Origin: an uncultured bacterium
GTDB taxonomy: Bacteria; Armatimonadota; HRBIN16
Direction: 5' to 3'
Assembly (NCBI GenBank): GCA_964650005.1
Contig: CAZYPZ010000002.1
Coordinates: 138,286-202,285, forward strand
DNA length: 64,000 nucleotides
Shown: one piece after another, positions 7,239-40,383 of the stretch
How the letters are laid out: each line of letters starts with the position of its first letter
How positions within the stretch are numbered: the stretch's first letter is position 1
Program-made: the position numbers and the translations under genes
The notes under the pieces: model-generated
Seen by the model: the letters and a program-made list of their open reading frames with translations, nothing else
Databases searched by the model: none
What the model was told of the DNA's origin: nothing

Positions 7239-7289
7239 CTGTATGCGTCACGGCAACAAACCGTGGTACATTGGCATCGGATGGCTCCG

Positions 7290-7350: not shown

Positions 7351-7368
7351 ACGTGACACGCAAGGCTT

Positions 7369-7420
7369 AGTATATCACATTCCGCGCGTCGCACGCACCG
7401 CCCCTTCCATCTGTTACAAT
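7369..7420. promoter_or_regulatory. Back-to-back extended -10 promoters for rplJ (minus) and dnaA (plus)
   Basis: Minus strand TGaTATACT (7377-7369); plus strand TGtTACAAT (7412-7420). Confidence 0.6.
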
Positions 7421-7481
7421 GCATTCCGCCGGCCGGCATTGTCTGCAGGCATCAGTTCGTCCTTCGGGGAGATCGACAGCG

Positions 7482-8906: not shown

Positions 8907-9216
8907 ATCCACAGACCCCTGTGGATACGCGGCGGACACCGTTGTGGATTTGGATGTGTATTACACCGCCGTTACACACCACTTGCACAGGCCTATCCTG
9001 CAGCCCTAGGTTTCCACATGTAAATCCACACATAGTACGCCGCAATGTCCACGGATGCCGGTGCCTCATGAATGTAGATTTGATGACTTTATGCAACTCT
9101 CCGCATGCGTCGGGCGTCTGAAAAGTGTGTGAGGGCTGACATGACTCAACCGGTATCCACAGAATCCACAGTTGCGTATACCAAGAAGAGTTTTATTTTA
9201 TATATTCACATTGATA
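8905..9216. other. oriC: Putative replication origin oriC (DnaA-box cluster plus AT-rich unwinding tract)
   Basis: Box-like 9-mers: GAATCCACA 8905-8913(+), GTATCCACA 8920-8928(-), AAATCCACA 8943-8951(-), AAATCCACA 9022-9030(+), GTATCCACA 9153-9161(+), GAATCCACA 9162-9170(+), ATATTCACA 9202-9210(+). AT-rich TTTTATTTTATATATTCACATTGATA at 9191-9216. Confidence 0.8.
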
Positions 9217-9244
9217 CGTGCAGGAGCGCTCTGAAAAACCCCGC

Positions 9245-10393: not shown

Positions 10394-10982
10394 AGCTCCG
10401 CTGCATGCGGATCTGGATAACCTGATGGATCAGTTGTCGGGTGGAAAAAACCGCTACATGCGGGTACTACGGCGTTGGAAGGAGTTGGTGGGACCTGCCA
10501 TCCACGAGGCTGCCTATCCGGAGCGGTACGAAAACGGGAAGCTGACGATCTGTGTGTGCAACAGCATCTGGATGCAGGAACTGATGTTGATGCGCACCCA
10601 GTTGCTGGACGTGCTGAACAGTGCAGCGGGCGATGATGTGTTCTGGGAGCTGGTATTTCGTGTCCGTTCCAAACGACGATCGCATCCGGAGAGTCCATCC
10701 ACTGTCAAACGGACGCACGCATTAAGGCTCCCACCGGCTACCGTCAGCGCTCAGCGTGCCGTGGCCAAACGGTGCGCCGAGATCAAGGACGAGGGACTGC
10801 GGGAGCTGATGCAGCGTGTGATGCTGACCCACACTCGTTTGGAAGCGGCGCGGCGGAAAGCTGGATGGAAACCCTGTCCCCGTTGCGGCGTGAGTTACCC
10901 CGGATATGGAACCTGTTGCACATTCTGCGAAGCTGATGCATCAGTCTGTGACCCGGCCGAACGCGGCGGCCCCGGAAGCTGA
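10380..10982 (+). CDS. DUF721/DciA-family protein with C-terminal Zn ribbon
   Basis: RWKELVGPAIHEAAYP...GKLTICVCNSIWMQEL and C-terminal CPRCG..CTFC; overlaps the recF stop, the usual position for this family. Confidence 0.75.
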   Translation: MPDFEAPLHADLDNLMDQLSGGKNRYMRVLRRWKELVGPAIHEAAYPERYENGKLTICVCNSIWMQELMLMRTQLLDVLNSAAGDDVFWELVFRVRSKRRSHPESPSTVKRTHALRLPPATVSAQRAVAKRCAEIKDEGLRELMQRVMLTHTRLEAARRKAGWKPCPRCGVSYPGYGTCCTFCEADASVCDPAERGGPGS

Positions 10983-12013
10983 GGCTCCAGCCAGCTCCAG
11001 AACCGGTCTTCTATCTCCATCTCGATTTCCAGCGCATACACCGGCAACCGCAGACTCTTGATCGTGCTTTCATCAAGCTTGACAGCGTCTTTGACGGTGA
11101 TCACCAACGCTTCGGCATGACGCGCGTCATGGTCGTTACAGATCTCCTGCAGCTGCTCCTGGCGCATGGGAGTGTGATCGGGAAGCCGTAAAGACAGGTT
11201 CATCTGCGCACCGCACTCGGACAGGGTGCGCTCAAACTGGCGGGGACGCGCCACCGCGCAGGCGGTCACGATATTCCGCTGGCGCAGCCAGGTGACCGGC
11301 AGACGCTCTCCGGATAGGATGTTGAGCAGCGCAGTCGGCATACGCTTGCTGACAAACAGCGGCCTGTCGGGTATGTGATGAGAGACCAGACCTTCCGTGA
11401 TATTGTCATCCAGCAGCAACGCCGAGGCCCGAAACAGACTTGAGACCGGTTCACGTAAATGACCCGATGGCGCCGGCCAGCCGTTACCGAACGGACGCCT
11501 GGCGTTCAGCATCACCAGATCGACATCGCGCGCCAGTTGCCAGTACTGAAATCCATCATCCAACAACAGCACATCGCAGTCGAAATGCTCGATGGCATAT
11601 CGGGCTGTACGCCGGCGGTCTTTCCCGACCAGTACGGGAACGCCTGGCAGCGACTGGGCCATCAGGTACGGTTCGTCACCGGCCTGAGCCACAGTGGCCA
11701 GCAGACGCTGACCATCGGATACGACGCCGCCTCGTCTGCTCATCTGTCCCCGGTATCCCCTGCTGAGTATCGCAACTCTGTGACCGCGCTGTTGCAGGTA
11801 CTTGGCGAGGGTGATCGTGGTGGGGGTCTTGGCCGCTCCGCCAAAGGCGATATTACCCACCGAGATCACAAACGCGTCACAATGATACTGTCTGGGAAGA
11901 CGCCATTTGAGGTATATGTTCAGCGCGGCCGAATAGAGCAGGCTAAGCGGCTTCATCGCCCGCTGGGCGGGCGTCATCACGTCCAGTTGATGAATTCGGT
12001 ATAGCATGCACAA
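10895..12013 (-). CDS. lpxK: Tetraacyldisaccharide 4'-kinase
   Basis: VISVGNIAFGGAAKTP, AILSRGYRG, GDEPYLMA, LLDDGFQ, PDH, VITVKDAVKL. Confidence 0.9.
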   Translation of the reverse strand: MCMLYRIHQLDVMTPAQRAMKPLSLLYSAALNIYLKWRLPRQYHCDAFVISVGNIAFGGAAKTPTTITLAKYLQQRGHRVAILSRGYRGQMSRRGGVVSDGQRLLATVAQAGDEPYLMAQSLPGVPVLVGKDRRRTARYAIEHFDCDVLLLDDGFQYWQLARDVDLVMLNARRPFGNGWPAPSGHLREPVSSLFRASALLLDDNITEGLVSHHIPDRPLFVSKRMPTALLNILSGERLPVTWLRQRNIVTACAVARPRQFERTLSECGAQMNLSLRLPDHTPMRQEQLQEICNDHDARHAEALVITVKDAVKLDESTIKSLRLPVYALEIEMEIEDRFWSWLEPQLPGPPRSAGSQTDASASQNVQQVPYPG

Positions 12014-12079
12014 TTGCGCCTTTCATGGTTTACTGGATGGTACAGGGCTGCGCCCGTACCTCCCGGGAGGAATCTGCCG

Positions 12080-12358
12080 ATGAGCGAACAGACATATCCG
12101 CTGACACCAGAGGAGATGGCCGAGAAACTGGCCCGTTGGAACCGGTTCCGATGCACCACACTCTCTCGCCTGAACCATGATGCCCGTTCGCCGTTGACCA
12201 CGATCATGGGCTTTGCCGAACTGCTGTTGGAAGAACCGCTGACCGAAGACCAGCTGCTCTACGCCCAACGCATCCTGGATTCATGTGATCAGATGATCGC
12301 CATCCTGGATGAGTTCCGAACGGCATTGAAGGATTATCCGCCCGAGCCGATGGAGTGA
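12080..12358 (+). CDS. Standalone histidine-kinase dimerisation/phosphoacceptor (HisKA/DHp) domain protein, 92 aa
   Basis: H-box LNHDARSPLTTIMGFAELL followed by a second helix (EDQLLYAQRILDSCDQMIAILDE); GGGAGG RBS; no ATPase domain. Confidence 0.75.
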   Translation: MSEQTYPLTPEEMAEKLARWNRFRCTTLSRLNHDARSPLTTIMGFAELLLEEPLTEDQLLYAQRILDSCDQMIAILDEFRTALKDYPPEPME

Positions 12359-12361
12359 TCG

Positions 12362-12811
12362 TTATGTACCCTCCGCAAGTCGTTTGACGCCGTCCAGGAT
12401 CATCTGGACGTTTTGTTCCAGTTTTTTGTGTATCAGGTTTTTTACCAGAGCGCCCAGCATCGGCACGTTGTATTCATAGTCCATGGTCGAACTGAAACGG
12501 GTCCCTCCGTTCTCGGCAGTGAACTGCCACAGACCGGTCATGCTTTGCATGTCCCCTTTGATCATGGTGAACCGGCAGGTCATCGCGGTCGGATCCCAAA
12601 TATCCTCTTCGGTCCAGACCACTTTCATGTTAAACTCGCGCACCAGTCCGACCCATTCGGTGATGGTGCGGAGTCCGTCTTCGCTGCGCTCCAATATGCG
12701 CACCGACTGCAGATCGGCCATGATGGACGGGAACTGCTCCACGTTCCGTACAACATTCCAGACGATATCCGGGGCCTTATCGATCCATACTGATTGCTCG
12801 ATTCGCGCCAT
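12362..12811 (-). CDS. SRPBCC/START-fold (polyketide cyclase/dehydrase-like) protein
   Basis: IEQSVWIDKAPDIVWNVVRNVEQFPSIM...CRFTMIKGDMQSMTGLWQF pattern; 149 aa. Confidence 0.8.
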   Translation of the reverse strand: MARIEQSVWIDKAPDIVWNVVRNVEQFPSIMADLQSVRILERSEDGLRTITEWVGLVREFNMKVVWTEEDIWDPTAMTCRFTMIKGDMQSMTGLWQFTAENGGTRFSSTMDYEYNVPMLGALVKNLIHKKLEQNVQMILDGVKRLAEGT

Positions 12812-12838
12812 ATTTTTAGTCTCCTGATAAAAATAGCA

Positions 12839-14278
12839 TCAGTAACTGCGGGCAAACACGACCTGCGTACTGGTGGGGCGGCCGGTCAGCACGCAAGATC
12901 CTGAACCTCCCGGCTGGTCAAACGGGATCACCCGGATCGTGGCTTTGGTTTCATTTTGGATCCGCTGTTCATCCTGTGCGTCTCCATCCCACCAGGCCAA
13001 CGCAAAGCCGGTTTGTACGGCCTCCCGCAGTTCTTCGTAGTTCGTCACGGTCTGTGTATGCTCCAGTCGGAACCGCAACGCTTTCTCATACAGCGCTGTC
13101 TGGATCTCCTGCAGCAGGTCACACACTGTTTGGGTCAATCCTTCCTGAGGGACAAACCGTTTCCCGTCGCGGCCGGGTACGTCACGGCGGGCCACCGCGG
13201 CGGAGCGCTTCTGCACATCTTTGGGGCCGATCTCGACGCGCACCGGCACACCCTTCATCTCCCATTCGTTGAACTTGAAACCCGGAGTCAGTTGATCGCG
13301 GTCATCCACGTGATAACGGATGATTCCTTTCCAAGGAGCGGTAATGCAGGCGATGGCCTGCTGAACAGCTGCGCGCTCTTCGGGTGTCTTGTAGATGGGC
13401 ACAACGACCACCTGAGTGGGCGCCACCGCAGGCGGAAGCACCAATCCCTCATCATCGGAGTGCGCCATGATCAATGCGCCGATCAGCCGCGTGGACACGC
13501 CCCACGATGCGGTGGATGCATACTCGATGGTGTTATCCGGTGTGGTGAACTTGATATCGAACGCCTTGGCGAAGTTCTGGCCCATGTTGTGGGTGGTTCC
13601 CGCCTGGAGGGCGCGGCCGTCCTGCATCATCGCTTCGATCGCATAGGTGGCCAAAGCACCTGCGAACTTTTCGTTATCGGTTTTGCGCCCTTTGATCACC
13701 GGGATGGCCAACACTTTTTCCACGAAATCGGCATAGACTTCATGCAGGATGAGCAACGCTTCCTTTTCGGCCTCTTCGGTGGTCGCGTGCGCGGTGTGGC
13801 CTTCCTGCCACAGGAACTCGGTGGTGCGCAGGAACGGACGCGTACGCATCTCCCAGCGGACGACATTGGCCCACTGGTTGATCAGGATCGGCAAGTCGCG
13901 CCAGGATTTGACCCATTTCGAAAAGCTGTGTCCGATAATCGCTTCGGATGTCGGGCGAACCACCAGCGGTTCGGCAAGCTCTTCGCCTCCACCTCGTGTG
14001 ACCACTGCGACTTCCGGAGCAAAGCCTTCCACATGCTCCGCTTCCTTGGTGAGAAAGCTCATCGGGATAAACAGCGGGAAGTAGGCATTCTGATGGCCGG
14101 TCGCCTTGATCCGGGCATCCAGTTCACGCTGGATCGCTTCCCAGATGGCATAACCGGTGGGTCGGATCACCATGCAGCCGCGGACGGCGCTATAGTCAGC
14201 CAGTTCGGCCTGACTGACGATATCGAGATACCACTGTGAATAGTCGGTGGCGCGAGGTGTGATTTCAGTTTTTGGCAT
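12839..14278 (-). CDS. proS: Proline--tRNA ligase, archaeal/eukaryote-like type
   Basis: DYSQWY, VRPTSE, NQWANVVRWE, FLRTTEFLWQEGHT, QAGTTHNMGQNFAKAF, SWGVSTR, C-terminal VFARSY. GGAGG RBS before ATG 14278. Confidence 0.95.
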   Translation of the reverse strand: MPKTEITPRATDYSQWYLDIVSQAELADYSAVRGCMVIRPTGYAIWEAIQRELDARIKATGHQNAYFPLFIPMSFLTKEAEHVEGFAPEVAVVTRGGGEELAEPLVVRPTSEAIIGHSFSKWVKSWRDLPILINQWANVVRWEMRTRPFLRTTEFLWQEGHTAHATTEEAEKEALLILHEVYADFVEKVLAIPVIKGRKTDNEKFAGALATYAIEAMMQDGRALQAGTTHNMGQNFAKAFDIKFTTPDNTIEYASTASWGVSTRLIGALIMAHSDDEGLVLPPAVAPTQVVVVPIYKTPEERAAVQQAIACITAPWKGIIRYHVDDRDQLTPGFKFNEWEMKGVPVRVEIGPKDVQKRSAAVARRDVPGRDGKRFVPQEGLTQTVCDLLQEIQTALYEKALRFRLEHTQTVTNYEELREAVQTGFALAWWDGDAQDEQRIQNETKATIRVIPFDQPGGSGSCVLTGRPTSTQVVFARSY

Positions 14279-14365
14279 GCAATCCCTCCAGGGACAAAGC
14301 GACGGGCTGAGACGCGTGGGTCCATTCCATTGTAACCCACCACCTACACGGCGTGTCACCACAGC

Positions 14366-14411
14366 AACAGGCCTGTCTGATACGCTCGCTGTATCAGACA
14401 GGCCTGTTTTT
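14366..14411. terminator. Perfect 18-bp hairpin downstream of the efflux operon
   Basis: AACAGGCCTGTCTGATAC-gctcgct-GTATCAGACAGGCCTGTT followed by TTT on the plus strand; lies between the RND gene end and a TACAAT -10 (minus, 14329-14334) for proS. Confidence 0.7.
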
Positions 14412-14467
14412 CCGGAGATCGGAATACCGATCAGCGCAGCTTCAGACCGAATCGATCGGTCGATATG

Positions 14468-17400
14468 TCAGACCGTGCGGGACTGGCGTTTCCGTTTGCC
14501 GAGTCCCCCCAGCCAGTTGGTCAGGTCATCGAAGATGGTGTATACGCAGGGAACCACCAGCAGGGTCAGCAATGTGGACAGAAGCAGTCCACCGATGACC
14601 GCGATGCCCAGCGGAGCGCGGAACTCCGATCCGCGTCCCAGCGCCAGTGCTGTGGGCAGTGTACCCATCACCATAGCGAACGTGGTCATCAGGATCGGTC
14701 GGAGACGAGTCGGGCCCGCCTCCAGGATGGCCGCCGTCCGATCGTGTCCGCGTCCGCGCAGCGTGTTCGTATAGTCCACCATCAGGATGGCGTTCTTGGT
14801 GACCAGTCCCATCAGCATGATGATACCGATCATCGCCACAATGTTGAGCGCGCTGCCGCCGACGATCAGGGCGATCAACGCGCCCACCATGGCCATCGGT
14901 AGCGACAGCATGATGGTCAGCGGCATGAGCAGCGACTCGAACAGGGCCGCCATCAGGATGTAGACCAGCACGATGGCCAGCATCAGCGCTTGCCCCATGT
15001 AACGGCCCTCTTCGGCCATCAACTGGTTTTCGCCTTCCCAGTTCATGCGGATGCCTGGAGGTGGGATCTGGGCTTTGGCGAGCGCTTCTTCGATGGGCCG
15101 CTGCATGTTACCGGTGGAATACCCATCCAGCAGATAGGCGGTGACGGTGACCATGCGTTCGCGGTTTTTCCGGTCGATTTTTGTCGGTCCGGCGGTCATA
15201 CGCACCGTCGCGACATCGCGGAGAAGCACCGGACGCGTCGCCACATATCCGACCACCAGGTTTTCCACCTGCTGCAGGTTGTCGCGTTGCGCTTCGGTCA
15301 GTTGGACGCGGATGTCGTACTCCTTACCGGCATCGCGGTACTTGGTATCCGTATTGCCCTGCACCTGTGTGCGCAGCGCGCTGGCAACCTGGGCCACAGA
15401 CAGACCCACCAAGGCGGCTTTTTCCGGATCGACGCTTACCTGCAGTTCCGGTTTTCCCAATTTCCATGAGAGGTCCGGGTCGACAATACCGGGTATACCG
15501 GCCAGAATGGTTTTCACCCGGGCGGTCACTTTAGAGAGCTGAGCCGAGTTGGGTCCGCTGAATTCCAGCTGGATGGGGGCTCCGCCACCGCCCGCACCGC
15601 TTGACTCGGCGTTGACGATAATCTTGGCTCCTGGTATTTGACCGATACGCGATCGCATCTCCGATACGATCTCCACATCGCGTCTTGTACGCAGGTGTTC
15701 CTTGTGCTTGCCGAATTTGAACCAGCCGGTGATGCCGTCGATCAGCGCCTGCTTTTCCACCAGCGTGATAGCGATTTCACCGTACTGCGATCCGGAGCCA
15801 CCCACATAGCTGCTGCCGGTCTGGCTTCCGACGCTGGTGGTGACATATTCGATTTCGTCGCGTACGGTGGGCGTGGTCTCGATGATCTTTTCGATACGCC
15901 GCATGACGCGGTCGGTGGCGGCTAAAGAGGTGCCGGCAGGCATCTCGACGGAGATCTTGACGCTGCCCTGGTCCTGCACAGGGAAGAAGCCAAACGGCAG
16001 CAGCTCCGGCATAAAAGACCCCGCCGCTCCAACGGCAGCCAGCACCGCACCGACGCCAATGGTGGAGAAACCGGCGCGGATCAGTGGAACACGGTGCCGC
16101 TTCCACAAGGCGCTGATCAGGAAGAACAGCACCGAGAACGCGGCCACTGTGGCCCCGAAACTCAGCGCAGCGGTGACAAACGATGGCCCGGCCAGTGAGC
16201 CGAAGATCAGCAGGAAGATGGCGATCAGCAGCGTGTTACCGATGGTCACCACCATCCAGCGGCGCTCCAAAGCATGGCGCAGGACGCCCCGGTACCACCG
16301 ATCCAAGGCTAGGTATGCGCGTTCGAATCCGCGGCTGAACCGGTCATTTCCGGCATCGGCATGCTCACCCGCCCGGAACCAGCGGGAGGCGAGCATTGGG
16401 GTAAGCGTAAAGGACACCAGCAGTGAGAACAGTGTGGCGGTGGCGACGGTGATACCGAACGCCCGGAAAAACTGCCCCACAATACCGCCCATAAACGCGA
16501 TGGGCACAAACACCACCACATCCACCATGGTGATCGCGATAGCTGCCAGTCCGATCTCCGATCGTCCGTTCAGCGCCGCCTCCGCAGGCTGTTCGCCCAG
16601 TGACAGATGCCGGAAGATGTTCTCCAGCACCACGATCGAGTCATCGACCAGAATGCCGACCGCCAGTGACAGGCCCAGCATGGTCATGGTGTTCAGGGTG
16701 AACCCCATGGCGTTGATGATGATGAACGTGGATACGAACGACGTGGGAATAGCCAGCGAGACGATCAACGTACCGCGGATGTTGTGCAGGAATATGTAAA
16801 CGACCAGCACCGCCAGAATGATCGCCAATGTCAGCGCCATCTGCAGGTCTGCGAGGTTTTCCAGAATGAACTTCGACTGGTCGAATGTGGTAACAAACTC
16901 GATGTCGCGCGGCAGCTCTTTGTCGAGCTTTTCAATTTCGGCTCGCGCAGCGGAGCATACATCCGCTGTATTTGAGTCGGATGTCTTTTGCACCACGACG
17001 GTCAGGCTGTTCTTTCCGTTGATACGTGCAAACTGGGTGCTTTCCTGCACGTTGTCGCTCACGGTGGCGACATCGCTCAACCGATAGGTGCGCGCCACGC
17101 CGTGCTGGTCAATCGCGGTGAGTCGGACGTTGCGGATTTCGTCCAGATTTTGGAACTCCCCGAATACACGCAGAGCGAACTCACGCCGGGGTTCGCGGAT
17201 GCGTCCGGCAGGTATGTTGAGGTTGGCCGCCTGCAGCGCGCCGATGATCTGCTGCACAGTGAGCCCGTAAGCATCCAGACGTCCCTTATCGATCTGAACC
17301 TGGATCTCGCGAACATCCCCGCCCACTACGCTGACCGATGCCGCTCCGGGCACGCGCGCCAAGCGGTTTGCCACCGTCTCTTCGGCGATGAACCTCAGTT

Positions 17401-29834: not shown

Positions 29835-31781
29835 TCACTTTGCGGTCAGCGTTCGGCGCACGCATTCCCTCAGGTCGCTCATCGAGAACGGTTTTTGCAA
29901 ATATCCATAAGGCGTCAGGCTGTGTATATGACGCATTACGTCGGTGAGGGGATATCCACTGATGATGATGACGGGCAGTTGCGGGGCCAGATCCTGCAGC
30001 CGTTGCAGGGTGACGTCGCCTGACATACCCGGCATACGCATATCCAGCAGCACCAGTCCGATTTCGTCGAGGTGTTCACCGGCAAGGCGCAGCCCTTCAT
30101 TACCCGAGTCAGCTGTCAATACCCGGTATCCGAACGTTTCCAGCATTCGCCGGGTTGTTTTCAGCACTTGAGGTTCATCGTCAATTACCAGAATGGCCTG
30201 CGAGGTGTCTGTCACATCGGCTGATCTCACCGGTTCCGGGCGATACAGCGGCAGCATCAGGCGCACGGTAACCCCTTGTCCGAGTGTACTTCGCAGACAA
30301 ATCGCGCCATGGTGGCTGCGCATAATCCCCAAAGTGGCGGAGAGGCCCAGTCCGCGTCCTTGGAACCGCGTGCTGAAAAACGGTTCGAATACACGGGTTG
30401 CCGTTTCCGGGCTGATGCCGGGACCGGTATCTGCAACTTCAATCAGCGCATATTCACCCGGTGTGGCGCCCTCGGCATAGGTGCATTGGCTCAGTTGTTC
30501 GGCGGTTAAGTGATGGCTGCAAAGTTTTACGGTGACCGTTCCGCCGCACTCGGAACACGCCTCAAACGCATTGGCAACCACATTGATCAACGCCTGTTTG
30601 ATATGGTTCGGGTCACCGGTGACCGTCAGCTCTTCGAGCAGATATTCGGCCTGCAGGACCACGCCCGGAGGCGCAGCGCGTGTCAACAGATCGAGCGTCT
30701 GTTCGATCAGGGGGCGCAGGGCGACACGTGCTTCCGTCATCCTGCCGGCTCCGGCATATGCCAGCAGCTGTTTACACAATTCTGCGGCTCGTTCTCCGGC
30801 CTGGTGGATCTCCTGAACATGTGACTGCAGGGCGTGGTGTTCCGGCAGGGCGCAGCGGATCAACGCGTTGTTTCCCAGGATTATCGTCAGCAGGTTGTTG
30901 AAGTCATGCGCGACTCCACCTGCCAGCACGCCCAGGCTCTCCAGTCGCTGGGTCTGCTCCAGGCGCTGTTCCGCCGCTTTCTGCATCGCCAGGGCTTCAT
31001 GCAGCGCGCTGATATCGGATATCAACGCCAGCGCGCCGGCATACCGACCGTCTTCGGTGAATACGGGCGCGGTGTTGATCAATGTATACACCGGGTGTCC
31101 GTCATTATGCTGAAACACGAACTCATGCTGTTCGGCAATACCGGATTGCCGACGCTGCACATTCGCAGCTGCCTGAGCGCGTTCCGACTCGGACATGAAC
31201 GTGAACAGGTGTTGGCCCATCATCTGCTCCGGCGTGTATCCCAACATCTCCGCCATGCGCCGGTTGACATATGTGGTGCAAGAGTGTTCGTCAATCTCCC
31301 ACACGCCCTCCCCGCATGTTTCTACCAGTCGGCGGTATCGGGCTTCACTCTGCCGCAGCTGATTCTCCGCCTCGGCGCGCTGGATCACCTCCCGTTCCAG
31401 CTTCGCCACTGTCTGGCGCAACGAGGCGGTGCGCTCCGCCACAACCTGTTCCAACCGTTCGTTCTGCCGTTCCAGCAGCCTGCGATGCTGGCGTTCCTCC
31501 AGGATCAGCGCCAGCATCTGGACCGCGTTGATCACAACCGCCTGCTCATCCGAAGGGCGCTGCCCGAATGACGGAGCCACGCACACGGCACCGAAGCAGG
31601 TCCGGTTCGTTCGCACGGGAATGACACCTGGTCCCGAAACGGGATCGGTGACATAACGATAGTCGTATCCGGGATCTCCCGCGTTCAGGGAGTCCACGAA
31701 AAGACGTATGACGGCGTCCGAGTCATCGATCTGACTCAACGACACCATCAACAGAAACAGATCATGGGTCAGGCGTTGCAC
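29835..31781 (-). CDS. Hybrid sensor histidine kinase (N-terminal GAF-like region, PAS, HisKA, HATPase, receiver)
   Basis: PAS (YVNRRMAEMLGY), GVAHDFNNLL, VADTGPGI, FFSTRFQGRGLGL, receiver ILVIDDE...VLLDMRMPGMSG. GTG start at 31781 after an AAAGGGG RBS. Confidence 0.9.
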   Translation of the reverse strand: MQRLTHDLFLLMVSLSQIDDSDAVIRLFVDSLNAGDPGYDYRYVTDPVSGPGVIPVRTNRTCFGAVCVAPSFGQRPSDEQAVVINAVQMLALILEERQHRRLLERQNERLEQVVAERTASLRQTVAKLEREVIQRAEAENQLRQSEARYRRLVETCGEGVWEIDEHSCTTYVNRRMAEMLGYTPEQMMGQHLFTFMSESERAQAAANVQRRQSGIAEQHEFVFQHNDGHPVYTLINTAPVFTEDGRYAGALALISDISALHEALAMQKAAEQRLEQTQRLESLGVLAGGVAHDFNNLLTIILGNNALIRCALPEHHALQSHVQEIHQAGERAAELCKQLLAYAGAGRMTEARVALRPLIEQTLDLLTRAAPPGVVLQAEYLLEELTVTGDPNHIKQALINVVANAFEACSECGGTVTVKLCSHHLTAEQLSQCTYAEGATPGEYALIEVADTGPGISPETATRVFEPFFSTRFQGRGLGLSATLGIMRSHHGAICLRSTLGQGVTVRLMLPLYRPEPVRSADVTDTSQAILVIDDEPQVLKTTRRMLETFGYRVLTADSGNEGLRLAGEHLDEIGLVLLDMRMPGMSGDVTLQRLQDLAPQLPVIIISGYPLTDVMRHIHSLTPYGYLQKPFSMSDLRECVRRTLTAK

Positions 31782-32437
31782 GTGTCCCCTTTCGGCAGAA
31801 ACTGCGGCGCATGCTCTTTCAGCCAGACATCCGGTTCGCGGTAGAGCGGATTCTGCAGGATCACGCCGCCATGGATCAGCCACGGATGGGTCTGTAACAC
31901 TCCCATAATCATCTCACCGGAGAACCGGCGTACGTCATACAGACAGATGCTGATCCAAGGCTTTCCGGGAATGAAGTAGTTGAGTCGGGATTCGTAGACC
32001 ATCAAGTGTTCCACACCGGGTATCCGCTCCAGCGCCCAGCTCATCTCCGCGGTGGCGCGGATGTTGCGCGGACCGTTCTGTTGACTGGCTGAAAAGAAGC
32101 CCTGAAGGTTGGTGTCCATGTCGGTCGGTGAGAACACGCCGCTTGGATAGTAGACCTCTCGGGCGGTTGACACATGGAACAAGTGAGGATCGTGCGTATC
32201 GTTGGCGTGGTCCGGATACAGTCGGGCGTACGTGGCCTGGAACTGGTCGATATCCTGTTCTACCGGCACATACAGTTGCAGATCGCCGTCTCTGGCTCCG
32301 CGATGCAGGTAGGGGAACAGGATATCGTTCCACTCTTGATCGGATTGGTAGAGACCGCACAGGTGTAATCCCCAGTTACACACCCAACCGCCAAATCCCA
32401 GATCGACTTCGGGCTGATCGGACGTCTTGAGATGCAT
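31769..32437 (-). CDS. Standalone MEDS (DcmR-like sensory) domain protein
   Basis: GLHLCGLY...FPYLHRGARDG, RATAEMSWAL, YESRLNYF, ICLYDVRRF...VLQTHP; AGGAGG RBS. Confidence 0.85.
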   Translation of the reverse strand: MHLKTSDQPEVDLGFGGWVCNWGLHLCGLYQSDQEWNDILFPYLHRGARDGDLQLYVPVEQDIDQFQATYARLYPDHANDTHDPHLFHVSTAREVYYPSGVFSPTDMDTNLQGFFSASQQNGPRNIRATAEMSWALERIPGVEHLMVYESRLNYFIPGKPWISICLYDVRRFSGEMIMGVLQTHPWLIHGGVILQNPLYREPDVWLKEHAPQFLPKGDTCNA

Positions 32438-32636
32438 CGTAACACCTCCTCGAGGGGCCCTGCGACGGGGGACGGCCGTTAACCGCCCGATACAGATACC
32501 GTATATGGTGTGTATGCATGATACACCTTTCTGCCAGTGATGTGTACTGGGTTCGCACATCTAATTCGTGTAATTTGCGATATGGTGTAGCCGGAAGACC
32601 CGTCGTATGCGGCGGTATAAAGGAGTGACGAAGTCC

Positions 32637-33274
32637 ATGTGGCCGTTTCAACCCAACGAACTGGTGCTGTTTCAGGGCGACAGCATCACCGATGCCGGAC
32701 GGTCCCGCGAGGATGACAGCCAGCTGGGCGCCGGATATGCCGCGTTGCTGGCTGCCTGGCTGCCTGGCTGTCGGCTCAATGGCCGCAGGGCCGCCTCCGG
32801 TTCCTGAACCGCGGAGTCAGTGGAGACCGCGTCTGTGACCTGGAAGCGCGCTGGAGCCGCGACTGTATAGAACTGCAACCGTCCTGGTTATCGATATTGA
32901 TCGGCATCAACGACACCTGGCGACGGTATGATTCGGGGGTTTCGTCGGATATCGATGCTTTCGAACGGACATATGAGCGACTGCTGCAGCGGGTGCGTCA
33001 GGAGACCTCTGCGCGGGTGATTCTGATGGAGCCGTTCGTGGCGCCGGTTACAGCCGATCAGTTGAATTGGCGGGAGGATCTGGACCCGCGTATCCAAGCC
33101 GTCCGGCGGGTCGCGCGGGCGTTCGGGGCGTATTATGTGCCGCTGGACGGTATGTTTGCCGCAGCCAGTGCGCATCGTGAGCCGGCATTCTGGGCCAGCG
33201 ACGGCGTGCACCCCACAGCGGCGGGGCATGCCCTCATCGCCCAACAATGGCTGCGTACCCTGCAGTCAGGCTGA
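32637..33274 (+). pseudogene. SGNH/GDSL hydrolase split by a frameshift
   Basis: Block I (FQGDSITD) lies in one frame; blocks II-V (LNRGVSG, IGINDTW, DGVHP) lie in another. The shift coincides with the duplicated 8-mer GCTGCCTG at 32751-32766. Confidence 0.9.
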
Positions 33275-33345
33275 GCGGTTCCTGCGCATTCCCCGCGAGG
33301 AGCCAGTGGCACGCGAATTGCTTGCAAGTGCCCTGAAGTTCAATC

Positions 33346-35016
33346 GTGGGGATCACGCGCATGCAGGGTACAGCCATACACACAGGCCCGGACCGCGGCC
33401 AAGCGCCGCCGATCCCGCCGTTTACGCAACTGGTGGACATGCACCGGCTGCAGGCTCATCTGAACCTGCTGCATGCGGCAACGGGCCTGTCGACCGCACT
33501 GCTCGACGCGAATGGACAGATCCTCGCCACGGTGGGCCTGCAGCCGGTCTGCACCGGGTTTCACCGCTGCAACGAGCGCGCTGCACCCTATTGTGCAGAG
33601 AGCGACCTGTTCCTGGCCGGATACCTGTATGCCGGGCGGACCGCGGGGTACCGCTGCCGCAACGGGATGTGGGATTACGCATGTCCCGTGATGGTGGCGG
33701 GACAGCATCTGGCCACTCTGTATATCGGCCAGTTTCACACAGACCCGCCCGATCGCGTAGAGGCGGATAAGCGGGCGGCCGAATATGGGTTTGATCCGGA
33801 AGCGTACTGGGACGCGTTGACTCATGCACCCGTGGTTGCGCCGGAGCGGGTTCAGCGTGTGGTGGATCTCGCGCGTGATACCGCCGAGCTGCTGGCGGAA
33901 ATCGGTTTGGAACGGCACATTCAGATGGAGGCGCAGCAGCGTCGGCTGGAGGAGAGCGAGACGTTGTATCGGGCGGTCTTTGAGCAATCGCCTGACTCCA
34001 TTGTGGTGCTGGACAAGCGCACCGGGCGCCCGGTACGGTACAACGCCGCGGCCTGTCAGCAGTTTGGTTGCACGCCGGAGCAGATGAGCGCACTCCGTAT
34101 CCCGCCGTTGGCGGTTGAAACCGCGATGCAGGCCTCCGCACAAGAGACGGATGGGCATGTCGAGTTGGAGACGCGGCATCATACGGTCACAGGGGAGCCG
34201 CGGGATGTCCACCTGGTCATGACCGACGTGCGTGTGGATGACACCGAATGCCTGTTATGCATCTTCCGCGACGTAACCGAGCGCAAACAGGCGGAACGAC
34301 GCCTGGTCAGCCTGGCCAACGAGCTGGCCCGATCCAATAACGAACTGCAGCAATTCGCCTATACCGCTTCACATGATTTGCAGGAACCGCTGCGGATGGT
34401 GAGTAGCTTCCTGAAGCTGATCGAGGAGCGGTATCGCGGGCAGCTGGATGAGGACGCCGACACGTTCATCGGGTTCGCCGTGGAAGGCGCCACGCGCATG
34501 CAGCACATGGTGCGCGATCTGCTGGAGTATGCCCGAGTTCAGACACAGGGGGCGCCGATGCATCCGGTTTCGAGCAGGGAGATGCTGGACCGTGCGCTCT
34601 TTGCACTTCAGGACGCCATCCGGGAGGCGGGAGTGGATATCTCTGTCGGCGAACTGCCTGTCGTGCAGGCGGATGGTGCGCAATTGAGCCGCCTGTTCCA
34701 AAACCTGTTGAGCAACGCGATCAAATTCCGCCATCCGGAGCGCGCGTCGCGCGTACGCGTGGACGCCGAGCGGATCGCTGACGGCTGGGTGTTTCGGGTT
34801 GAAGATAATGGCATCGGCATTCCGCCCGAACAGCGTGAACGGGTGTTCGCGTTGTTCCAGCGCCTGCATGCGCACTCGGCATATCCGGGGACCGGCATCG
34901 GATTGGCGGTCTGCAAACGGATTGTGGAGCGGCATGGCGGGTGGATCACAGTGGACGCCTCTGCAGACGGAGGCGCCTGTTTCCGGTTCTGCCTGCCGGA
35001 TGCAATGGGCGCATGA
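33346..35016 (+). CDS. PocR-domain plus PAS sensor histidine kinase
   Basis: PocR pattern (ATGLSTALLDANG...VCTGFHR...YC..SD...YRCRNG...PVMVAGQHLATLYIGQF), ASHDLQEPLR, VEDNGIGI, GTGIGLA. Start codon uncertain (33346 or 33361). Confidence 0.88.
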   Translation: MGITRMQGTAIHTGPDRGQAPPIPPFTQLVDMHRLQAHLNLLHAATGLSTALLDANGQILATVGLQPVCTGFHRCNERAAPYCAESDLFLAGYLYAGRTAGYRCRNGMWDYACPVMVAGQHLATLYIGQFHTDPPDRVEADKRAAEYGFDPEAYWDALTHAPVVAPERVQRVVDLARDTAELLAEIGLERHIQMEAQQRRLEESETLYRAVFEQSPDSIVVLDKRTGRPVRYNAAACQQFGCTPEQMSALRIPPLAVETAMQASAQETDGHVELETRHHTVTGEPRDVHLVMTDVRVDDTECLLCIFRDVTERKQAERRLVSLANELARSNNELQQFAYTASHDLQEPLRMVSSFLKLIEERYRGQLDEDADTFIGFAVEGATRMQHMVRDLLEYARVQTQGAPMHPVSSREMLDRALFALQDAIREAGVDISVGELPVVQADGAQLSRLFQNLLSNAIKFRHPERASRVRVDAERIADGWVFRVEDNGIGIPPEQRERVFALFQRLHAHSAYPGTGIGLAVCKRIVERHGGWITVDASADGGACFRFCLPDAMGA

Positions 35017-35438
35017 GAACGAGACGGCTGCTATTGGTGGAGGACTGCAAGGCGGAACAGCGCCTGATGACCGAAGCGTGGAATACCGTATGTCCGGATG
35101 TGTGTATTCAGACCGCTGATACAGCCGAGGAGGCGTTACGCCAACTGATGCACCGCCAATGCTTCGGCGGGAGTCTGCCGCAGCTGGTGCTGCTCGATGT
35201 GAATCTTCCCGGCCGCTCGGGCTTTGACGTACTGGCTTACGTGAAAACTCATGCGGAGCTGCGGGTCATTCCTGTAATGATCGTCAGCACGCTGCAGTCG
35301 CCGGACATGGTGAACCATGCGTATCGACTGCAGGCCAACGGTTACATCCCAAAACCCGACAGCTGGGAGCGATACCTGCAGATGGTGAGCTGTATGGATC
35401 GGTTCTGGTTCCAGACTGTGAGGCTGCCCTATGACTGA
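35013..35438 (+). CDS. Single-domain response regulator (Rcp1-like)
   Basis: LLVED, LVLLDVNLPGRSG, ANGYIPKP; ATGA overlap with the kinase stop. Confidence 0.88.
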   Translation: MRTRRLLLVEDCKAEQRLMTEAWNTVCPDVCIQTADTAEEALRQLMHRQCFGGSLPQLVLLDVNLPGRSGFDVLAYVKTHAELRVIPVMIVSTLQSPDMVNHAYRLQANGYIPKPDSWERYLQMVSCMDRFWFQTVRLPYD

Positions 35439-36555
35439 TACGCTGCTGGTTCTGGTGATCGATGACAACGACGGAGACTGCAGGCTGATCCAGGAGTTGC
35501 TGCGCCGAGTGCGCAGTCCGGAATGCCAGGTTGTGCATGAGCATACCCTGGCGGACGGATTGAAGCGTTCCGCTGCTCAGCCGCCGGATGTCGTGCTGCT
35601 GGACTTGGGATTACGGGAAACCGATGGTCTGGAGACCCTTTCGGCCTGGCTGCAGGGCGGCAGCCCTGCGCCGGTAGTGGTGCTCACCGGCCTGGATGAT
35701 GACGAAACGGCGCGCCAGGCGGTGCGTATGGGCGCACAAGACTATCTGATCAAGCATGACATGAGCGCACAGGAGCTGCTGCGCGCCATCCGGTACGCGT
35801 TGGAGCGTCATCAATTCACCAACCGGATGGTCGACCTGGAGCGATTGGAGAGCCTGGGGAGGCTGGCCGGAGCGGTGGCTCATGACTACAACAACCTGCT
35901 GACGGCCATCCTGTGCAATACCGACATGGCGATGGCTGAAGCGGCTTCTAACTCCACTCTGATGCACTATCTGAAGGAGATCGACAAAGCGGGACAGCAC
36001 GCAGCGCGCATCGCGGCCTCGATGCTGACATTTTCCGGACGCGGTTTTCACCTGTTTACGGAGCTGGACCTGGCCGGTCTGCTGCGCGAGATCCGGCCGG
36101 CGATACAGACACTGGCGGTTGACCGCATCGAGATGGTCTGGAACATTGACTGTCTGGGGCTGATCGTCCGCGTTGACCCAGCCCAGATCCAGCAGGCGCT
36201 GGTCAATCTGGTGGCAAACGCCGTGGAAGCGTCTCCGGAAGAGGGCGGACGGCTGGTGGTATCGCTCCGCAAGGAGAGGCCTGATGAGTCCAAACGTCGG
36301 CAGGTGTTTCCGCAGGCGCTGCCGGATGCGGAATATGCGGTGATCGCTGTACAGGACAACGGGCATGGCATGGATGCCGCGACGCTGGCCAAAGTGTTTG
36401 ATCCGTTCTTTACTACCCGGTTTACCGGCAGAGGGCTGGGGCTGGCCGCGGTGCTGGGAATTGTACGCGCGCACCGGGGCGGTATCTATGCCGAGAGCCA
36501 GCCCCATGACGGGGCGTTGTTTGAACTGTTGCTGCCGGTGGTGAACACCGCCTGA
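35431..36555 (+). CDS. Receiver-HisKA-HATPase hybrid kinase
   Basis: VIDDND...VLLDLGL...AQDYLIK; AVAHDYNNLL; VQDNGHGM; PFFTTRFTGRGLGL. Confidence 0.9.
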   Translation: MTDTLLVLVIDDNDGDCRLIQELLRRVRSPECQVVHEHTLADGLKRSAAQPPDVVLLDLGLRETDGLETLSAWLQGGSPAPVVVLTGLDDDETARQAVRMGAQDYLIKHDMSAQELLRAIRYALERHQFTNRMVDLERLESLGRLAGAVAHDYNNLLTAILCNTDMAMAEAASNSTLMHYLKEIDKAGQHAARIAASMLTFSGRGFHLFTELDLAGLLREIRPAIQTLAVDRIEMVWNIDCLGLIVRVDPAQIQQALVNLVANAVEASPEEGGRLVVSLRKERPDESKRRQVFPQALPDAEYAVIAVQDNGHGMDAATLAKVFDPFFTTRFTGRGLGLAAVLGIVRAHRGGIYAESQPHDGALFELLLPVVNTA

Positions 36556-36637
36556 TCTTCCAAACCGGCAGGAAACAACCGCCCCGCTCGGGAAACTGAG
36601 TGCGCTGAAGTTCAGACCACGTCGGTTGGGAGGCCAG

Positions 36638-38761
36638 ATGAACCCGAACTCTGTCACGTTACCGTTTTCGCATGTGCCCGTTGGCTGTTCACTGGGTAAC
36701 CGCGCCTGTTTCATACGTACGAGCCCGGCCGGCGGGATCGATCATCTGTGGCAGGCGCGTACCGGCCGATGGTTTTTCGGCGAAGCCCTGTGTTGGGTGG
36801 AATCCGAAGGTGTCGCTTTACAGCCGATGTCTGTCAGTATGTTGCCCTATGCTCAGGAGACAACGTACCGGGGCGCTCAGTGCGAAGCGTTGTTGCGTGT
36901 GTTCGTCCCCGCGGAGGAAGTCTGTGCTGTCTGCCTGACGCTGATCGTGTCAAACAGCGGCCCCACACCATGCGCTGTCATGGTACGCGCCGCAGGCAAG
37001 TTGAGCGCGCGCCCCTCCCTCATGCACCGTCGGCAGCCGCAGCCACAGGACATCGACCGCACGTTTCCCGATTGGAACATCACAACGCAGTGGCGATGCG
37101 GGTATCCGGTGCAGACACTGACCGCTCGCTCGGACAGCAACGACGCACTGCTGGTTTCGTTCACGGGAGCGTCGGTGTTGACGATGGATGATCAGTGCCG
37201 ATGGACGGCGGAGAGCCCGTTGACGGTGTCCGGATGGGAAAGCGTGCGTATCGACATGACGCTGCAGGTTGGCGACTTGGAGCCTCTGGATCCGGCGGTC
37301 GAATGGTTGAAATTGGACGCGCGGACCGAGGCGGAACCGCGCCTGATAACACCATCCCGGCTGCTGGACGACGGCTTCCGGTGGGCCGTTCGCAACAGCG
37401 CCCGAATCAGCCATCGCTTTGCGCAAGGAGTCGGATTCACGAACGACCCACCCGGTACGCTGGTGGTGTCCCGTGACGCAGGTTGGTTCGGTTTTGGCCT
37501 GGATGCTGTAGATCCCGAGCATACCCATGAGATGTGGAATACCCTGACACGGCTGAGCATCCTTCCGGATGGCAAGGTGGCTGAATACATCGACCTGAAT
37601 ACCGATCCGGTCTTTCGGGATGACTATGGGTTGAACATCGCCGACCCCACCCCGTTGTATCTGCTGGGGATGGCGCATCATGCCCGTTTCCGCGGTGACA
37701 AGCAATGGCTGCTGCAGGTATGGCCGGCGCTGCAGCGGGTGTATACGTATCTGCTGTCGCAGATGCGGGATGGACAGGTCGTTTGCACCTCGCAGTCACG
37801 GGATCCCGGGCGTGGCGTGTGCGGCTGGCGTAACGTGATGAGTGATGAGAATATCAGCGGCGTCGTAACGGAGCTGCAGGCGCTGTGCGCCGCCGCGCTG
37901 CACGCCGTCAGCGAATTGGCCGAGTGGCTGGAACGTCATGACGAAGCGCAGACACTGCGGCGGGCTGCGGAAGACGCCACGGCGGCCCTGGAGACCCTGC
38001 GCCATCCGGAAACAGGCGGGTATGTGCTGTGCCGGCGCCTGGATGGAACGCTGGATCTGCGCCGTACGGTGGATCAGGTGTTCCCGCTGGTATGGGGGCT
38101 GGCGTCGGTGGATGCCGAAGCGGCCGTCTGGACCCAGCTGACTACGCCCACATTCCTGACGGACTGGGGGGTACGCACGGCGCCGGCTGATGTTCCGGAG
38201 TATCATCCGGACGCTCAATGGGGGTTGACCGGCGGGGTGTGGCCCAATGCGGCTGCCTGGCTGGCGTTTGTCGCGATGCGGCTGGATCCCGAACGGGCTG
38301 TGGCGCTGGCTGAACAGCAGGCTGCGCCGCTCCGTCTGGATGACTACAGGGATCGCGGTGCGCTGGCGCCGGGACAGTTCCCCGAGTGGTACCACGGCGA
38401 TGTGCTGTTGAGCCGAGGGATGTCCATGAGTCCGTGGATGCCGCCTACCTTCCTGTGGCTGATGGTCGAAGGACTGCTGGGACTGCATGTCGAGCCGGAT
38501 CGACTGTCCATCACACCGCATTTGCCATCTGCCTGGGAGGCGGCGGGCGTCGGCGGACTGCAGATCCACGGTCGACGGTTCAGTGTGATTGTCACCCCTG
38601 ATGCGATCTATGCGACGCAGCCGTTGACCGCAGACCGGCCGGTGGTCGTGGGTTGTGAGCCATTATCCGGTTTACCGGACCAAACGATCGAGATCACCTG
38701 TGAGGGCGTGACTGTACGGTTGGACACATCCGGCCTGCACCTTCTGCCCCAAAGCAGATGA
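36638..38761 (+). CDS. (alpha/alpha)6 glycoside hydrolase, amylo-alpha-1,6-glucosidase/glycogen-debranching-like
   Basis: VSRDAGW, DPTPLYL, FLTDWGVRT, YHP...GGVWP, FPEWY; GGAGG RBS. Confidence 0.65.
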   Translation: MNPNSVTLPFSHVPVGCSLGNRACFIRTSPAGGIDHLWQARTGRWFFGEALCWVESEGVALQPMSVSMLPYAQETTYRGAQCEALLRVFVPAEEVCAVCLTLIVSNSGPTPCAVMVRAAGKLSARPSLMHRRQPQPQDIDRTFPDWNITTQWRCGYPVQTLTARSDSNDALLVSFTGASVLTMDDQCRWTAESPLTVSGWESVRIDMTLQVGDLEPLDPAVEWLKLDARTEAEPRLITPSRLLDDGFRWAVRNSARISHRFAQGVGFTNDPPGTLVVSRDAGWFGFGLDAVDPEHTHEMWNTLTRLSILPDGKVAEYIDLNTDPVFRDDYGLNIADPTPLYLLGMAHHARFRGDKQWLLQVWPALQRVYTYLLSQMRDGQVVCTSQSRDPGRGVCGWRNVMSDENISGVVTELQALCAAALHAVSELAEWLERHDEAQTLRRAAEDATAALETLRHPETGGYVLCRRLDGTLDLRRTVDQVFPLVWGLASVDAEAAVWTQLTTPTFLTDWGVRTAPADVPEYHPDAQWGLTGGVWPNAAAWLAFVAMRLDPERAVALAEQQAAPLRLDDYRDRGALAPGQFPEWYHGDVLLSRGMSMSPWMPPTFLWLMVEGLLGLHVEPDRLSITPHLPSAWEAAGVGGLQIHGRRFSVIVTPDAIYATQPLTADRPVVVGCEPLSGLPDQTIEITCEGVTVRLDTSGLHLLPQSR

Positions 38762-40383
38762 ACTGCCGGTGCGGTCAGGGCACGCCAACCGCTTCGCCCG
38801 GTGTGGCGGCCCATCTATGGTGCATGGATAACCGGTTGTGGCCTGTTCAGAGTACGCTGTGGTACTGGTGGCCGCAACATTGGCAAAGCGTGCTGCCGCA
38901 CCCGGTGGCCGCGCGGTATCCCGCGCGGTTGGTGTGCGGGGCGTATGCGGGGAAAGTGACCGCGGGTCAAACCTGTGTGACCGATGCGCAGGGGACCAGA
39001 CAACCCTCTCGATGGCGCAGTCCAAGCGGCGCTCTGGTCGGCCCGGGCCAGCCGGTAAGTCCGGGGGACACACTGGAGGTGGTGTTTCCGGCTGGCCCGC
39101 GTGAAGGCGCTGTCGTTGCCACACTCTACCTGCTGATCAACCCTGAGGGGCCGCCTGTGTCTCCCTTGACGGAGAATGCTCGGCCAGTGGATTGGGTCGA
39201 GTGGACCACTGCAGATACCGATCGGGGACTGCTTGACTGTTCGGGGCCGTTTCGCGTGGATCAGCCGGCGTCGCTGGCTCAGCTGCAGGCCATCCATTCG
39301 GCCCGCTGGGGGCTTTGGTATGAGTTTGCCCGATGGGAGCGTGACCCTCAGGTCTCACTGCAGGGGTTTACGGCCGCTCCGGTGAACCCGCTGTGGTTGG
39401 CCGCGCAGCCCGGCAGCCGATCCACGGGATTCAACCTGGACGATGTGCCCCGATTTCCGTTGCTGACCGCCGAAGCGATGCGCCTGTATCCCGTATCGTG
39501 GGGGCGTGCGGCCATACGGACAGGAGTGAGCAGTCTGCTGTCGTATCTTCGCCCGGACGGTTCCATGCCTTACCTGCTGGCGCCCTGGAGCGGTGCGCAT
39601 GTGGAGGAAGAGGCGCCTTTCCATACCTACCATAGCCTTCGGATGCTGGGCGAGGCGCTGTTGTGGGATTGGGATGACAGGCTCACCGGCGCGATGCTGC
39701 AGGTGTTCGACCGGTTATTCGACCACGCGATGCGGCACACCGTACGCGGGCTGTTCCACGGCCGGGCGTCGGCCTCGGGAGCGCTGCTGGATGCGCTGTG
39801 GCGCCGTCACCGGCGCGGCGATGCGCGCGCCCAATGGCGACAGGCCATGCGACCGCTGGCCGATGCGCTCTGCACGGCGGAAGCGCGCGCCCAGACGGAC
39901 GACTTTGCCGAGTATCTGCCTTGGGCCCCCATCGGACTGATCCGTGCTGCACAGGTCTTTGGTGGCGTGGCCTACACGCGGGAGGCGCAGTACTGGCTGG
40001 ACCGCTCGTGGATGGCGCTACAGCGTGACCGGAGGTTCTACCTGCCGGAGCCGAGGTTCACACCCTCCAACCCGTCCGGCGCGCCGGGCGCCAATCCGCT
40101 TTCGGTGTGGTATCACACGGATGCGATGATGCTTTACGCCGAGCTTACGGGTGATATACGCTGGGAGCGTCGGGCCGAGTGGGTTTGGAACGATTATTAT
40201 GACAGCGCTCGCTACGCGGATCATCCGGCCTGGCGCATTGTGGATACGGGTGATGCGGATACGGAGCGTTGGGGAAGCGCCAGCGCCGAAGATGCGCTGC
40301 GGATGTTGGCCAAATGGATGTGGCAGCGACGGCGTCCGGGGTTGTATCAGCGGATACGGGTTTCCCGGAGAGCGCCTTCGTAG
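38758..40383 (+). CDS. Hypothetical Trp-rich protein, possibly with an alpha/alpha-toroid C-terminal part
   Basis: 541-aa ORF coupled by ATGA overlap to the upstream glycoside hydrolase and filling the gap to guaA; no family motif recognised. Confidence 0.6.
   Translation: MNCRCGQGTPTASPGVAAHLWCMDNRLWPVQSTLWYWWPQHWQSVLPHPVAARYPARLVCGAYAGKVTAGQTCVTDAQGTRQPSRWRSPSGALVGPGQPVSPGDTLEVVFPAGPREGAVVATLYLLINPEGPPVSPLTENARPVDWVEWTTADTDRGLLDCSGPFRVDQPASLAQLQAIHSARWGLWYEFARWERDPQVSLQGFTAAPVNPLWLAAQPGSRSTGFNLDDVPRFPLLTAEAMRLYPVSWGRAAIRTGVSSLLSYLRPDGSMPYLLAPWSGAHVEEEAPFHTYHSLRMLGEALLWDWDDRLTGAMLQVFDRLFDHAMRHTVRGLFHGRASASGALLDALWRRHRRGDARAQWRQAMRPLADALCTAEARAQTDDFAEYLPWAPIGLIRAAQVFGGVAYTREAQYWLDRSWMALQRDRRFYLPEPRFTPSNPSGAPGANPLSVWYHTDAMMLYAELTGDIRWERRAEWVWNDYYDSARYADHPAWRIVDTGDADTERWGSASAEDALRMLAKWMWQRRRPGLYQRIRVSRRAPS

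Follow-up and report, generated by a model that had tools for sequence, protein, structure and literature searches.

The 64,000-nucleotide stretch of contig CAZYPZ010000002.1 analysed here, referred to as the window, carries between positions 29835 and 36555 a group of signalling genes arranged in two divergent arms, with an SGNH/GDSL hydrolase gene lying between the 5' ends of the arms. An original prediction had described this region as a single signalling island, in which MEDS and PocR sensors, three kinases and three receivers form a multi-input phosphorelay for small alcohols or C1-C3 compounds, perhaps the products of the esterase. Open reading frames (ORFs) were listed and scanned with Pfam over 27-40 kb of the window, whose numbering is used throughout. 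The six genes are present at positions that agree with that description, and every domain named in it was confirmed by Pfam. On the minus strand, a stand-alone MEDS protein of 222 amino acids (31769..32437) precedes a hybrid kinase of 648 amino acids, HK1 (29835..31781), which comprises an N-terminal domain, a coiled coil, a PAS domain, a HisKA domain (H292), a HATPase domain and a receiver (D580). On the plus strand, the SGNH/GDSL hydrolase gene (32637..33274; Pfam Lipase_GDSL_2 on its 3' fragment), which is frameshifted in this genome, is followed by three genes: a PocR-PAS-HisKA (H338)-HATPase kinase of 551 amino acids with a Cph1-type H-box (33361..35016), a single-domain receiver of 141 amino acids (D62) of the Rcp1/RcpA type (35013..35438), and a receiver (D58)-HisKA (H151)-HATPase protein of 374 amino acids of the LvrB type (35431..36555), referred to as the receiver-kinase.

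The starts and stops of these genes overlap as had been proposed, by 13 nucleotides (nt) between MEDS and HK1, 4 nt between the PocR kinase and the receiver, and 8 nt between the receiver and the receiver-kinase. The first of these values takes the GTG at 31781, and not 31883, as the true start of HK1, as set by its orthologue in a relative with 78-86% protein identity (L001). All phospho-histidines and phospho-aspartates of the three kinase cores and three receivers are in place, and each of the three kinases has intact N, G1 and G2 boxes. HK1 exhibits a PAS match of 64 bits, HATPase_c and Response_reg matches, and a weak HisKA match of 21 bits, under the cut-off of 26.9. The proposed lack of a local DNA-binding output was confirmed as well: these genes contain no helix-turn-helix, GGDEF or other effector domain, and no response regulator or Hpt protein was found among the scanned window ORFs of at least 200 amino acids.

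With regard to the minus arm, the MEDS gene and the 5' end of the HK1 gene form a pair that is also observed in many other genomes. A relative of the window MEDS protein is encoded in 179 species-level genomes. A profile of the N-terminal domain of HK1 (about 110-125 amino acids, 31407..31781, minus strand; alignments A1 and A4) was run on the six-frame ORFs from 80 species-level loci that represent about 15 phyla. In 74 of these loci, the profile located the domain directly 3' of MEDS and on the MEDS strand, the gap between the two genes having a median of about 4 nt; three of the six failures are contig ends. When six contexts from five phyla were compared, the gene 3' of MEDS was found to start each time with about 110 residues of the pattern HDLFLLMxNLSQ...FG...NAxQMLAxILE, the remainder of the protein being different. 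Clustering of the neighbouring ORFs returned only MEDS (79 loci) and its partner (76 loci) as conserved; no third conserved gene was found beside the pair by this clustering, the other recurrent clusters being seemingly antisense shadow ORFs. The exceptions to the pairing include L021 and L062, in which ample sequence lies 3' of MEDS and no gene with the N-terminal domain is present, and L054, in which this domain is located 4 kb upstream of MEDS instead.

The partners of MEDS are variable in everything except this domain. According to Pfam, the 64 complete partners comprise PAS (51), HATPase (45), HisKA (38) and receiver (26) domains, and more rarely HisKA_2/HWE (5), PocR (3) and GGDEF-EAL (1); one partner from Bacteroidales exhibits no kinase at all, and the N-terminal domain is kept throughout. 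This domain matched no Pfam family in the 64 partners scanned and no NCBIfam family. An exhaustive profile search retrieved it in 767 representative clusters, 450 of them at E <=1e-10, and in nearly all of the 150 listed it is located at the N-terminus or within about 25 residues of it, in proteins of 88-1455 amino acids. Across the same 72 loci, the mean pairwise identity is 65% for MEDS and 33% for the N-terminal domain, and the distances of the two are correlated (r = 0.60, Mantel p = 0.001). The structural model of the domain, with a predicted local distance difference test score (pLDDT) of 91, is built of two helices and three strands, together with a long helix continuous with the coiled coil. 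The structures that it matches best are GAF domains, at a weak level (KdpD 4qpr, TM 0.57, probability 0.99, E 0.11), and there is no Pfam GAF match. The pair is widespread and sharply defined, and we found no published description of it. Another type of output is observed in P0243 and P0244, two short proteins in which the N-terminal domain and a coiled coil are followed by a cysteine-rich tail (LPLCSFCKKIRDDKGYW...HSICPEC).

The MEDS protein itself was assigned to PF14417 with 115.4 bits, compared to a gathering score of 29.8, and the match covers positions 2-161 of the 161 of the profile. Its family is tight, with members of 214-225 amino acids that are 54-64% identical to the window protein and are found in about 15 phyla, including Desulfobacterota, Bacteroidota, Chloroflexota, Planctomycetota, Spirochaetota, Omnitrophota and Acidobacteriota. 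With another MEDS domain, the subfamily shares only 22% identity. In the AlphaFold model (pLDDT 81), the protein resembles sso2452, KaiC, FlaH and PH0186 according to Foldseek (E 6e-5 to 6e-4, TM 0.55-0.62), and its sequence is devoid of a Walker A motif (no G-x4-GK[ST]). As judged from this model, MEDS is an inactivated KaiC/RecA-like fold without a P-loop. The fold matches and the missing Walker A motif agree with the label of inactivated KaiC (iKaiC) given to MEDS by Galperin and colleagues (PMC5847659). A sequence search of the PDB returned nothing for MEDS or for the PocR domain. Across phyla, 75 columns of the MEDS alignment (A2) are invariant, including H25, E35, D52, E131, E143, E149, R151, K159, C165 and H184, as well as the run YESRLNYFIP.KPW. 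Such conservation, unusually strong for a sensor domain, hints at a possible cofactor, a metal or several interaction surfaces.

Regarding the plus arm, the PocR domain (PF10114) of the first kinase scored 127.7 bits, compared to a gathering score of 23.9, and its cysteine and histidine motifs (C64, F67-H68-R69, C78-E-S-D and C99) are invariant in alignment A6. The orthologues of this kinase end at 86% identity, and the next relatives are at most 43% identical. Among six independent contexts of PocR kinases, four exhibit a triad composed of the kinase, a receiver of about 145 amino acids and a receiver-X protein, with 30-43% identity where compared, and the other two are orphan kinases. The X part is GAF-SpoIIE in L091, PAS-kinase-receiver in L092 and PAS-GAF-kinase-receiver in L093; in L174, it belongs to a kinase of 375 amino acids that can be aligned over its full length with the window receiver-kinase, at 30% identity. 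The lone receiver of the window is closest in the PDB to RcpA (1k68, E 2e-21) and Rcp1 (1i3c, E 2e-19), and the kinase exhibits the H-box SHDLQEPLR, so the resemblance to Cph1/Rcp1 that had been pointed out for these genes is well founded. The receiver-kinase aligns with LvrB (8vc9) over residues 8-371 with an E value of 5.5e-26. It scored 118.4 bits with the NCBIfam LvrB model, under the curated cut-off of 500 bits, which indicates that the architecture is shared and that the protein is not an orthologue of LvrB. A metagenome scan with the PocR-kinase alignment matched the generic kinase core and no PocR relatives, and it served as a control set: about one third of these 80 related kinase cores exhibit a small receiver directly 3', and genes for MEDS, for the N-terminal domain or for a GDSL hydrolase are found near none of the 80.

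The 86 nt that separate the esterase from the PocR kinase hold the sequence TGGCACGCGAATTGCT (33307-33322, plus strand), which matches the full -24/-12 consensus of sigma-54 promoters (TGGCAC-N5-TTGCT) and is located 39 nt before the ATG of the PocR kinase. This is the sole match in the 64-kb window, where 0.15 are expected, and it is kept in L001 (5981-5996) amid diverged flanks. Such a putative promoter implies an enhancer-binding activator. Upstream of MEDS, a sigma-70-like match (32518..32546, minus strand) comprises a -10-like block, TATCAT, which is conserved with L001 together with a ribosome-binding site, GGAGGTG; by consensus alone, this match is not above chance. Given the sigma-54 site before the PocR kinase and the conserved -10 block before MEDS, the esterase and each of the two arms appear to be transcribed separately. 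A terminator scan gave nothing useful between the genes. In an RNA-labelled sludge run, contigs that match exactly are present for both arms, including one across the MEDS/HK1 junction, and none for the esterase, at a very low depth and with DNA carry-over being possible.

The SGNH/GDSL gene is split over two reading frames by an 8-bp tandem duplication, TGGCTGCC being present twice at 32749..32764 (plus strand). Its catalytic blocks are present in this genome and split by the duplication, not in one intact frame; removal of one copy of the repeat restores a protein of 209 amino acids with the GDSIT, GINDT and DGVHP blocks, and the L001 orthologue is intact, with 209 amino acids. The metagenome runs that carry window sequence come from hot spring and sludge. 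Contigs of two hot-spring runs (X1, X2) carry the duplication, and contigs of two sludge runs (X3, X4), otherwise near-identical, lack exactly these 8 bases. The frameshift is therefore real, recent and polymorphic between populations. The original prediction had placed the esterase at the centre, between the two arms, and had suggested it as the source of the signal. Neither role is supported by our results. As the gene lies on the plus strand, 86 nt 5' of the PocR kinase, with the sigma-54 match in the gap, it is not a neutral centre. In 79 other species, no GDSL homologue was found at 10 kb or less from MEDS, nor was one found near four other PocR kinases (L091, L092, L093 and L174). The esterase was rejected as a component of the system: it is frameshifted here, intact elsewhere and, L001 apart, a neighbour in no other genome compared. 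A guess at the ligand that rests on this broken passenger should be dropped.

The two arms are arranged as in the window only in L001, and the synteny with this relative extends into metabolic genes on both sides. Conservation of the whole cluster had been proposed as a check, and none was found beyond this one close relative; of the findings named beforehand as jointly fatal to a single system, the first, that the arms and the esterase never occur together elsewhere, is nearly what is observed, since they co-occur in L001 alone, and the second is a lack of cross-phosphorylation. We consider it fairly probable that the region comprises three separately promoted units, namely the MEDS pair, the PocR arm and the esterase, and not one dedicated island. 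In the explanation that we favour as a whole, and to which we give a little more credence than doubt, the MEDS protein and the N-terminal-domain kinase form a conserved, translationally coupled two-gene sensor module, the plus arm is a PocR-input version of the Cph1/Rcp1 layout, that is, a relay of a known kind with an unusual input, and the SGNH esterase is a bystander without a signalling role, inactivated here. The apparent island would then be a composite. The data fit a relay without a local output, and they are not best read as one integrated island.

Several observations weigh against this explanation. Two of them concern its parts: neither a sigma-54 factor (rpoN) nor an enhancer-binding activator was found among the scanned window ORFs of at least 200 amino acids, and the model-based assignment of the N-terminal domain to GAF is weak. 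The others argue for one multi-input relay without the esterase, in which different cues perceived by MEDS-HK1 and by the PocR kinase would be passed on to a common set of receivers. PocR is found within 10 kb of MEDS in six of the 79 distant loci, and in five of these six the hits are not scattered: the MEDS partner itself contains PocR in L046, L063 and L085, and the gene immediately 5' of MEDS does so in L066 and L043. L066 (Prolixibacteraceae) exhibits, at 8161-14638, a one-strand operon with all five component types and gaps of 0-21 nt, in the order PocR-PAS (606 amino acids), MEDS, N-terminal-domain kinase (397 amino acids), receiver (147 amino acids) and receiver-receiver-PAS-kinase (773 amino acids). 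P0130 is a fusion of MEDS, PocR and a kinase, and the same receiver genes (receiver, receiver-kinase) follow it. A genuine KaiC-KaiB pair stands ahead of the PocR triad in L174, where 2906-9996 comprises, all in the same direction, a receiver, a two-domain KaiC with two Walker A motifs, KaiB, a MASE3-PAS protein, the PocR kinase, a receiver and the receiver-kinase of 375 amino acids. Furthermore, the kinase cores of HK1 and of the window receiver-kinase are paralogue-like, being 37% identical, and the closest match of the HK1 receiver is the cis receiver at the C-terminus of the third kinase in the L092 triad. As the window receiver-kinase is devoid of such a receiver, it may phosphorylate D580 of HK1 in trans. 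Nevertheless, PocR is absent within 10 kb of MEDS in 73 of the 79 distant loci, the PocR triads of L091 and L092 have no MEDS gene nearby, the arms of the window are divergent and differ in promoter type, and their arrangement is found only in the fully syntenic L001. What stands of the integrated relay of the original prediction is the presence of PocR within or beside the MEDS pair in a few distant genomes and the existence of fusions; what does not is the joining of the two arms beyond L001. A coupling of the arms is thus a possibility and not our default, and a single converging relay in the window appears rather unlikely. Chance adjacency could be invoked at the other extreme, with signalling genes clustering in kinase-rich genomes and only ordinary two-component parts being present. 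Loci such as L009 and L041, in which many unrelated kinases lie side by side, are in line with it, as is the neighbourhood shared with L001, which runs into metabolic genes. However, MEDS is paired with its partner in 74 of 80 loci, and the PocR triad is kept in four of six contexts. Each of these arrangements is far too conserved for chance, which could only account for the juxtaposition of the two units, and we regard it as improbable as an explanation of the whole.

A further alternative concerns the function of MEDS, which might not be a small-molecule sensor but a KaiC-like oligomeric scaffold or an enzyme, reporting for instance a nucleotide, metal or redox state, that the kinase merely reads out. 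Such a role would account for the much stronger conservation of MEDS relative to its partner, with 65% identity compared to 33% for the N-terminal domain in the same 72 loci. The columns that are invariant across phyla, including H25, E131, C165 and H184, the KaiC/RecA-like fold, its published label and the hosts, mostly from lineages labelled anaerobes, are also consistent with it. In contrast, the missing Walker A motif makes a classical ATPase chemistry unlikely, and no cofactor motif was identified. We hold this alternative to be doubtful, with an appreciable chance of being correct. In the favoured reading of the minus arm as a two-gene sensor module, the private N-terminal GAF-like domain of the kinase would dock MEDS, the state of MEDS, set by a ligand or by redox, would determine the autophosphorylation of HK1 at H292, and the phosphate would pass from H292 to the receiver of HK1 itself, at D580. 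In the plus arm, the PocR-PAS kinase (H338) would phosphorylate D62 of the Rcp1-type receiver and D58 in the receiver of the LvrB-type kinase. Phosphorylation of D58 would switch on the autophosphorylation of H151, as in LvrB, and the phosphate of H151 would go to a response regulator encoded elsewhere.

The broadest interpretation of these results is that MEDS and the N-terminal docking domain constitute an undescribed, phylum-spanning two-protein sensor, in which an inactivated KaiC-like subunit would govern kinases and other outputs in a way comparable to KaiC with SasA, and which in the lineage of the window and some others would be wired to a relay of PocR kinase, Rcp-type receiver and LvrB-type kinase. 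We put this forward tentatively; if true, an input of the KaiC superfamily would feed a receiver-controlled kinase cascade. For two decades, the literature has referred to MEDS as a hydrocarbon sensor, almost wholly on a prediction: in the founding paper, the binding of small hydrocarbon derivatives by MEDS is a prediction only (PMID 15814558). The subfamily characterized here, of about 220 amino acids and about 60% identity, with one unannotated partner domain, offers a testable pair for the function of MEDS and for its contact with the kinase. The plus arm adds an example with a PocR input to the class of receiver-controlled kinases, for which the mechanism of LvrB was solved in 2026.

Several features were observed elsewhere in the window. 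A small ORF at 12014-12358 (plus strand), located beside lpxK and 18 kb from the signalling genes, encodes a DHp segment similar to an H-box, LSRLNHDARSPLTTIMGFAELL, and is devoid of an ATPase domain; it is the DHp protein to which the original prediction referred. The genes of dnaA, a RecF/SMC-type ATPase and DciA lie together at 7419-10982, which suggests a replication-origin region, and the cumulative GC skew exhibits its minimum near 18-22 kb. Three ORFs of 879, 541 and 643 amino acids (64-2703, 38758-40383 and 57017-58948, respectively) have no Pfam family at E <=1e-5; the second of them overlaps the stop of the gene of an MGH1-like glycoside hydrolase (36626-38761). The presence of LpxK, AcrB and an outer-membrane efflux protein points to a diderm bacterium.

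When compared with known systems, the two sensor domains belong, according to Pfam, to the same families as DcmR and PocR, the founding members of the MEDS and PocR families, which are one-component DNA-binding regulators (PMID 15814558); in contrast to these, the domains of the window feed histidine kinases. The closest arrangement for a MEDS protein is that of the ethylene oxide-sensing system of Mycobacterium NBB4, in which the MEDS-only EtnR2 acts with the GAF-containing activator EtnR1 (PMC11197473). There, as here, a stand-alone MEDS protein is encoded beside a second protein, the GAF likeness being weak in the present case. EtnR1 is a PucR-type DNA-binding activator, whereas the window MEDS protein is paired with a PAS hybrid kinase whose GAF-like domain is minimal and has no Pfam annotation. 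Moreover, the window MEDS subfamily is a distant one, with 22% identity to another MEDS domain, and is unusually conserved, and the pair has no hydrocarbon-metabolism genes nearby. The vicinity of a KaiC-fold protein and a histidine kinase is reminiscent of KaiC with SasA or CikA and of KaiBC-kinase clusters. However, the window MEDS protein, unlike KaiC, is single-domain and has neither a Walker A motif nor a KaiB partner, and the window kinase, unlike those of the SasA/CikA systems, has no KaiB-like docking domain.

For the plus arm, the models are Cph1/Rcp1 and RcpA/RcpB of cyanobacteria, with which the window genes share the H-box of the kinase and an Rcp-type receiver of about 145 amino acids encoded directly 3' in an overlapping gene, the overlap being 4 nt in the window. 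Unlike Cph1, the window kinase exhibits no PAS-GAF-PHY photosensory module, since Pfam finds only PocR and one PAS before the kinase core, and a third gene, encoding the receiver-kinase, follows in the window. This third protein resembles LvrB of Leptospira, the prototype of receiver-controlled kinases, in which phosphorylation of the receiver frees the catalytic domains (PMC13269768), and whose target, LvrC, is encoded elsewhere (PMC13269768, PMC5863495). The two proteins share the receiver-DHp-CA architecture, with D58 as the phospho-aspartate and H151 as the phospho-histidine in the window protein, and an output regulator located elsewhere. As in LvrA/LvrB, an upstream kinase and a receiver-DHp-CA kinase of about 375 amino acids follow one another in the same operon, neither with a DNA-binding domain. 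The upstream kinase of the window differs from LvrA in carrying PocR and in not being a hybrid, and the window differs from LvrA/LvrB as a whole in the additional Rcp1-type receiver encoded between its two kinases.

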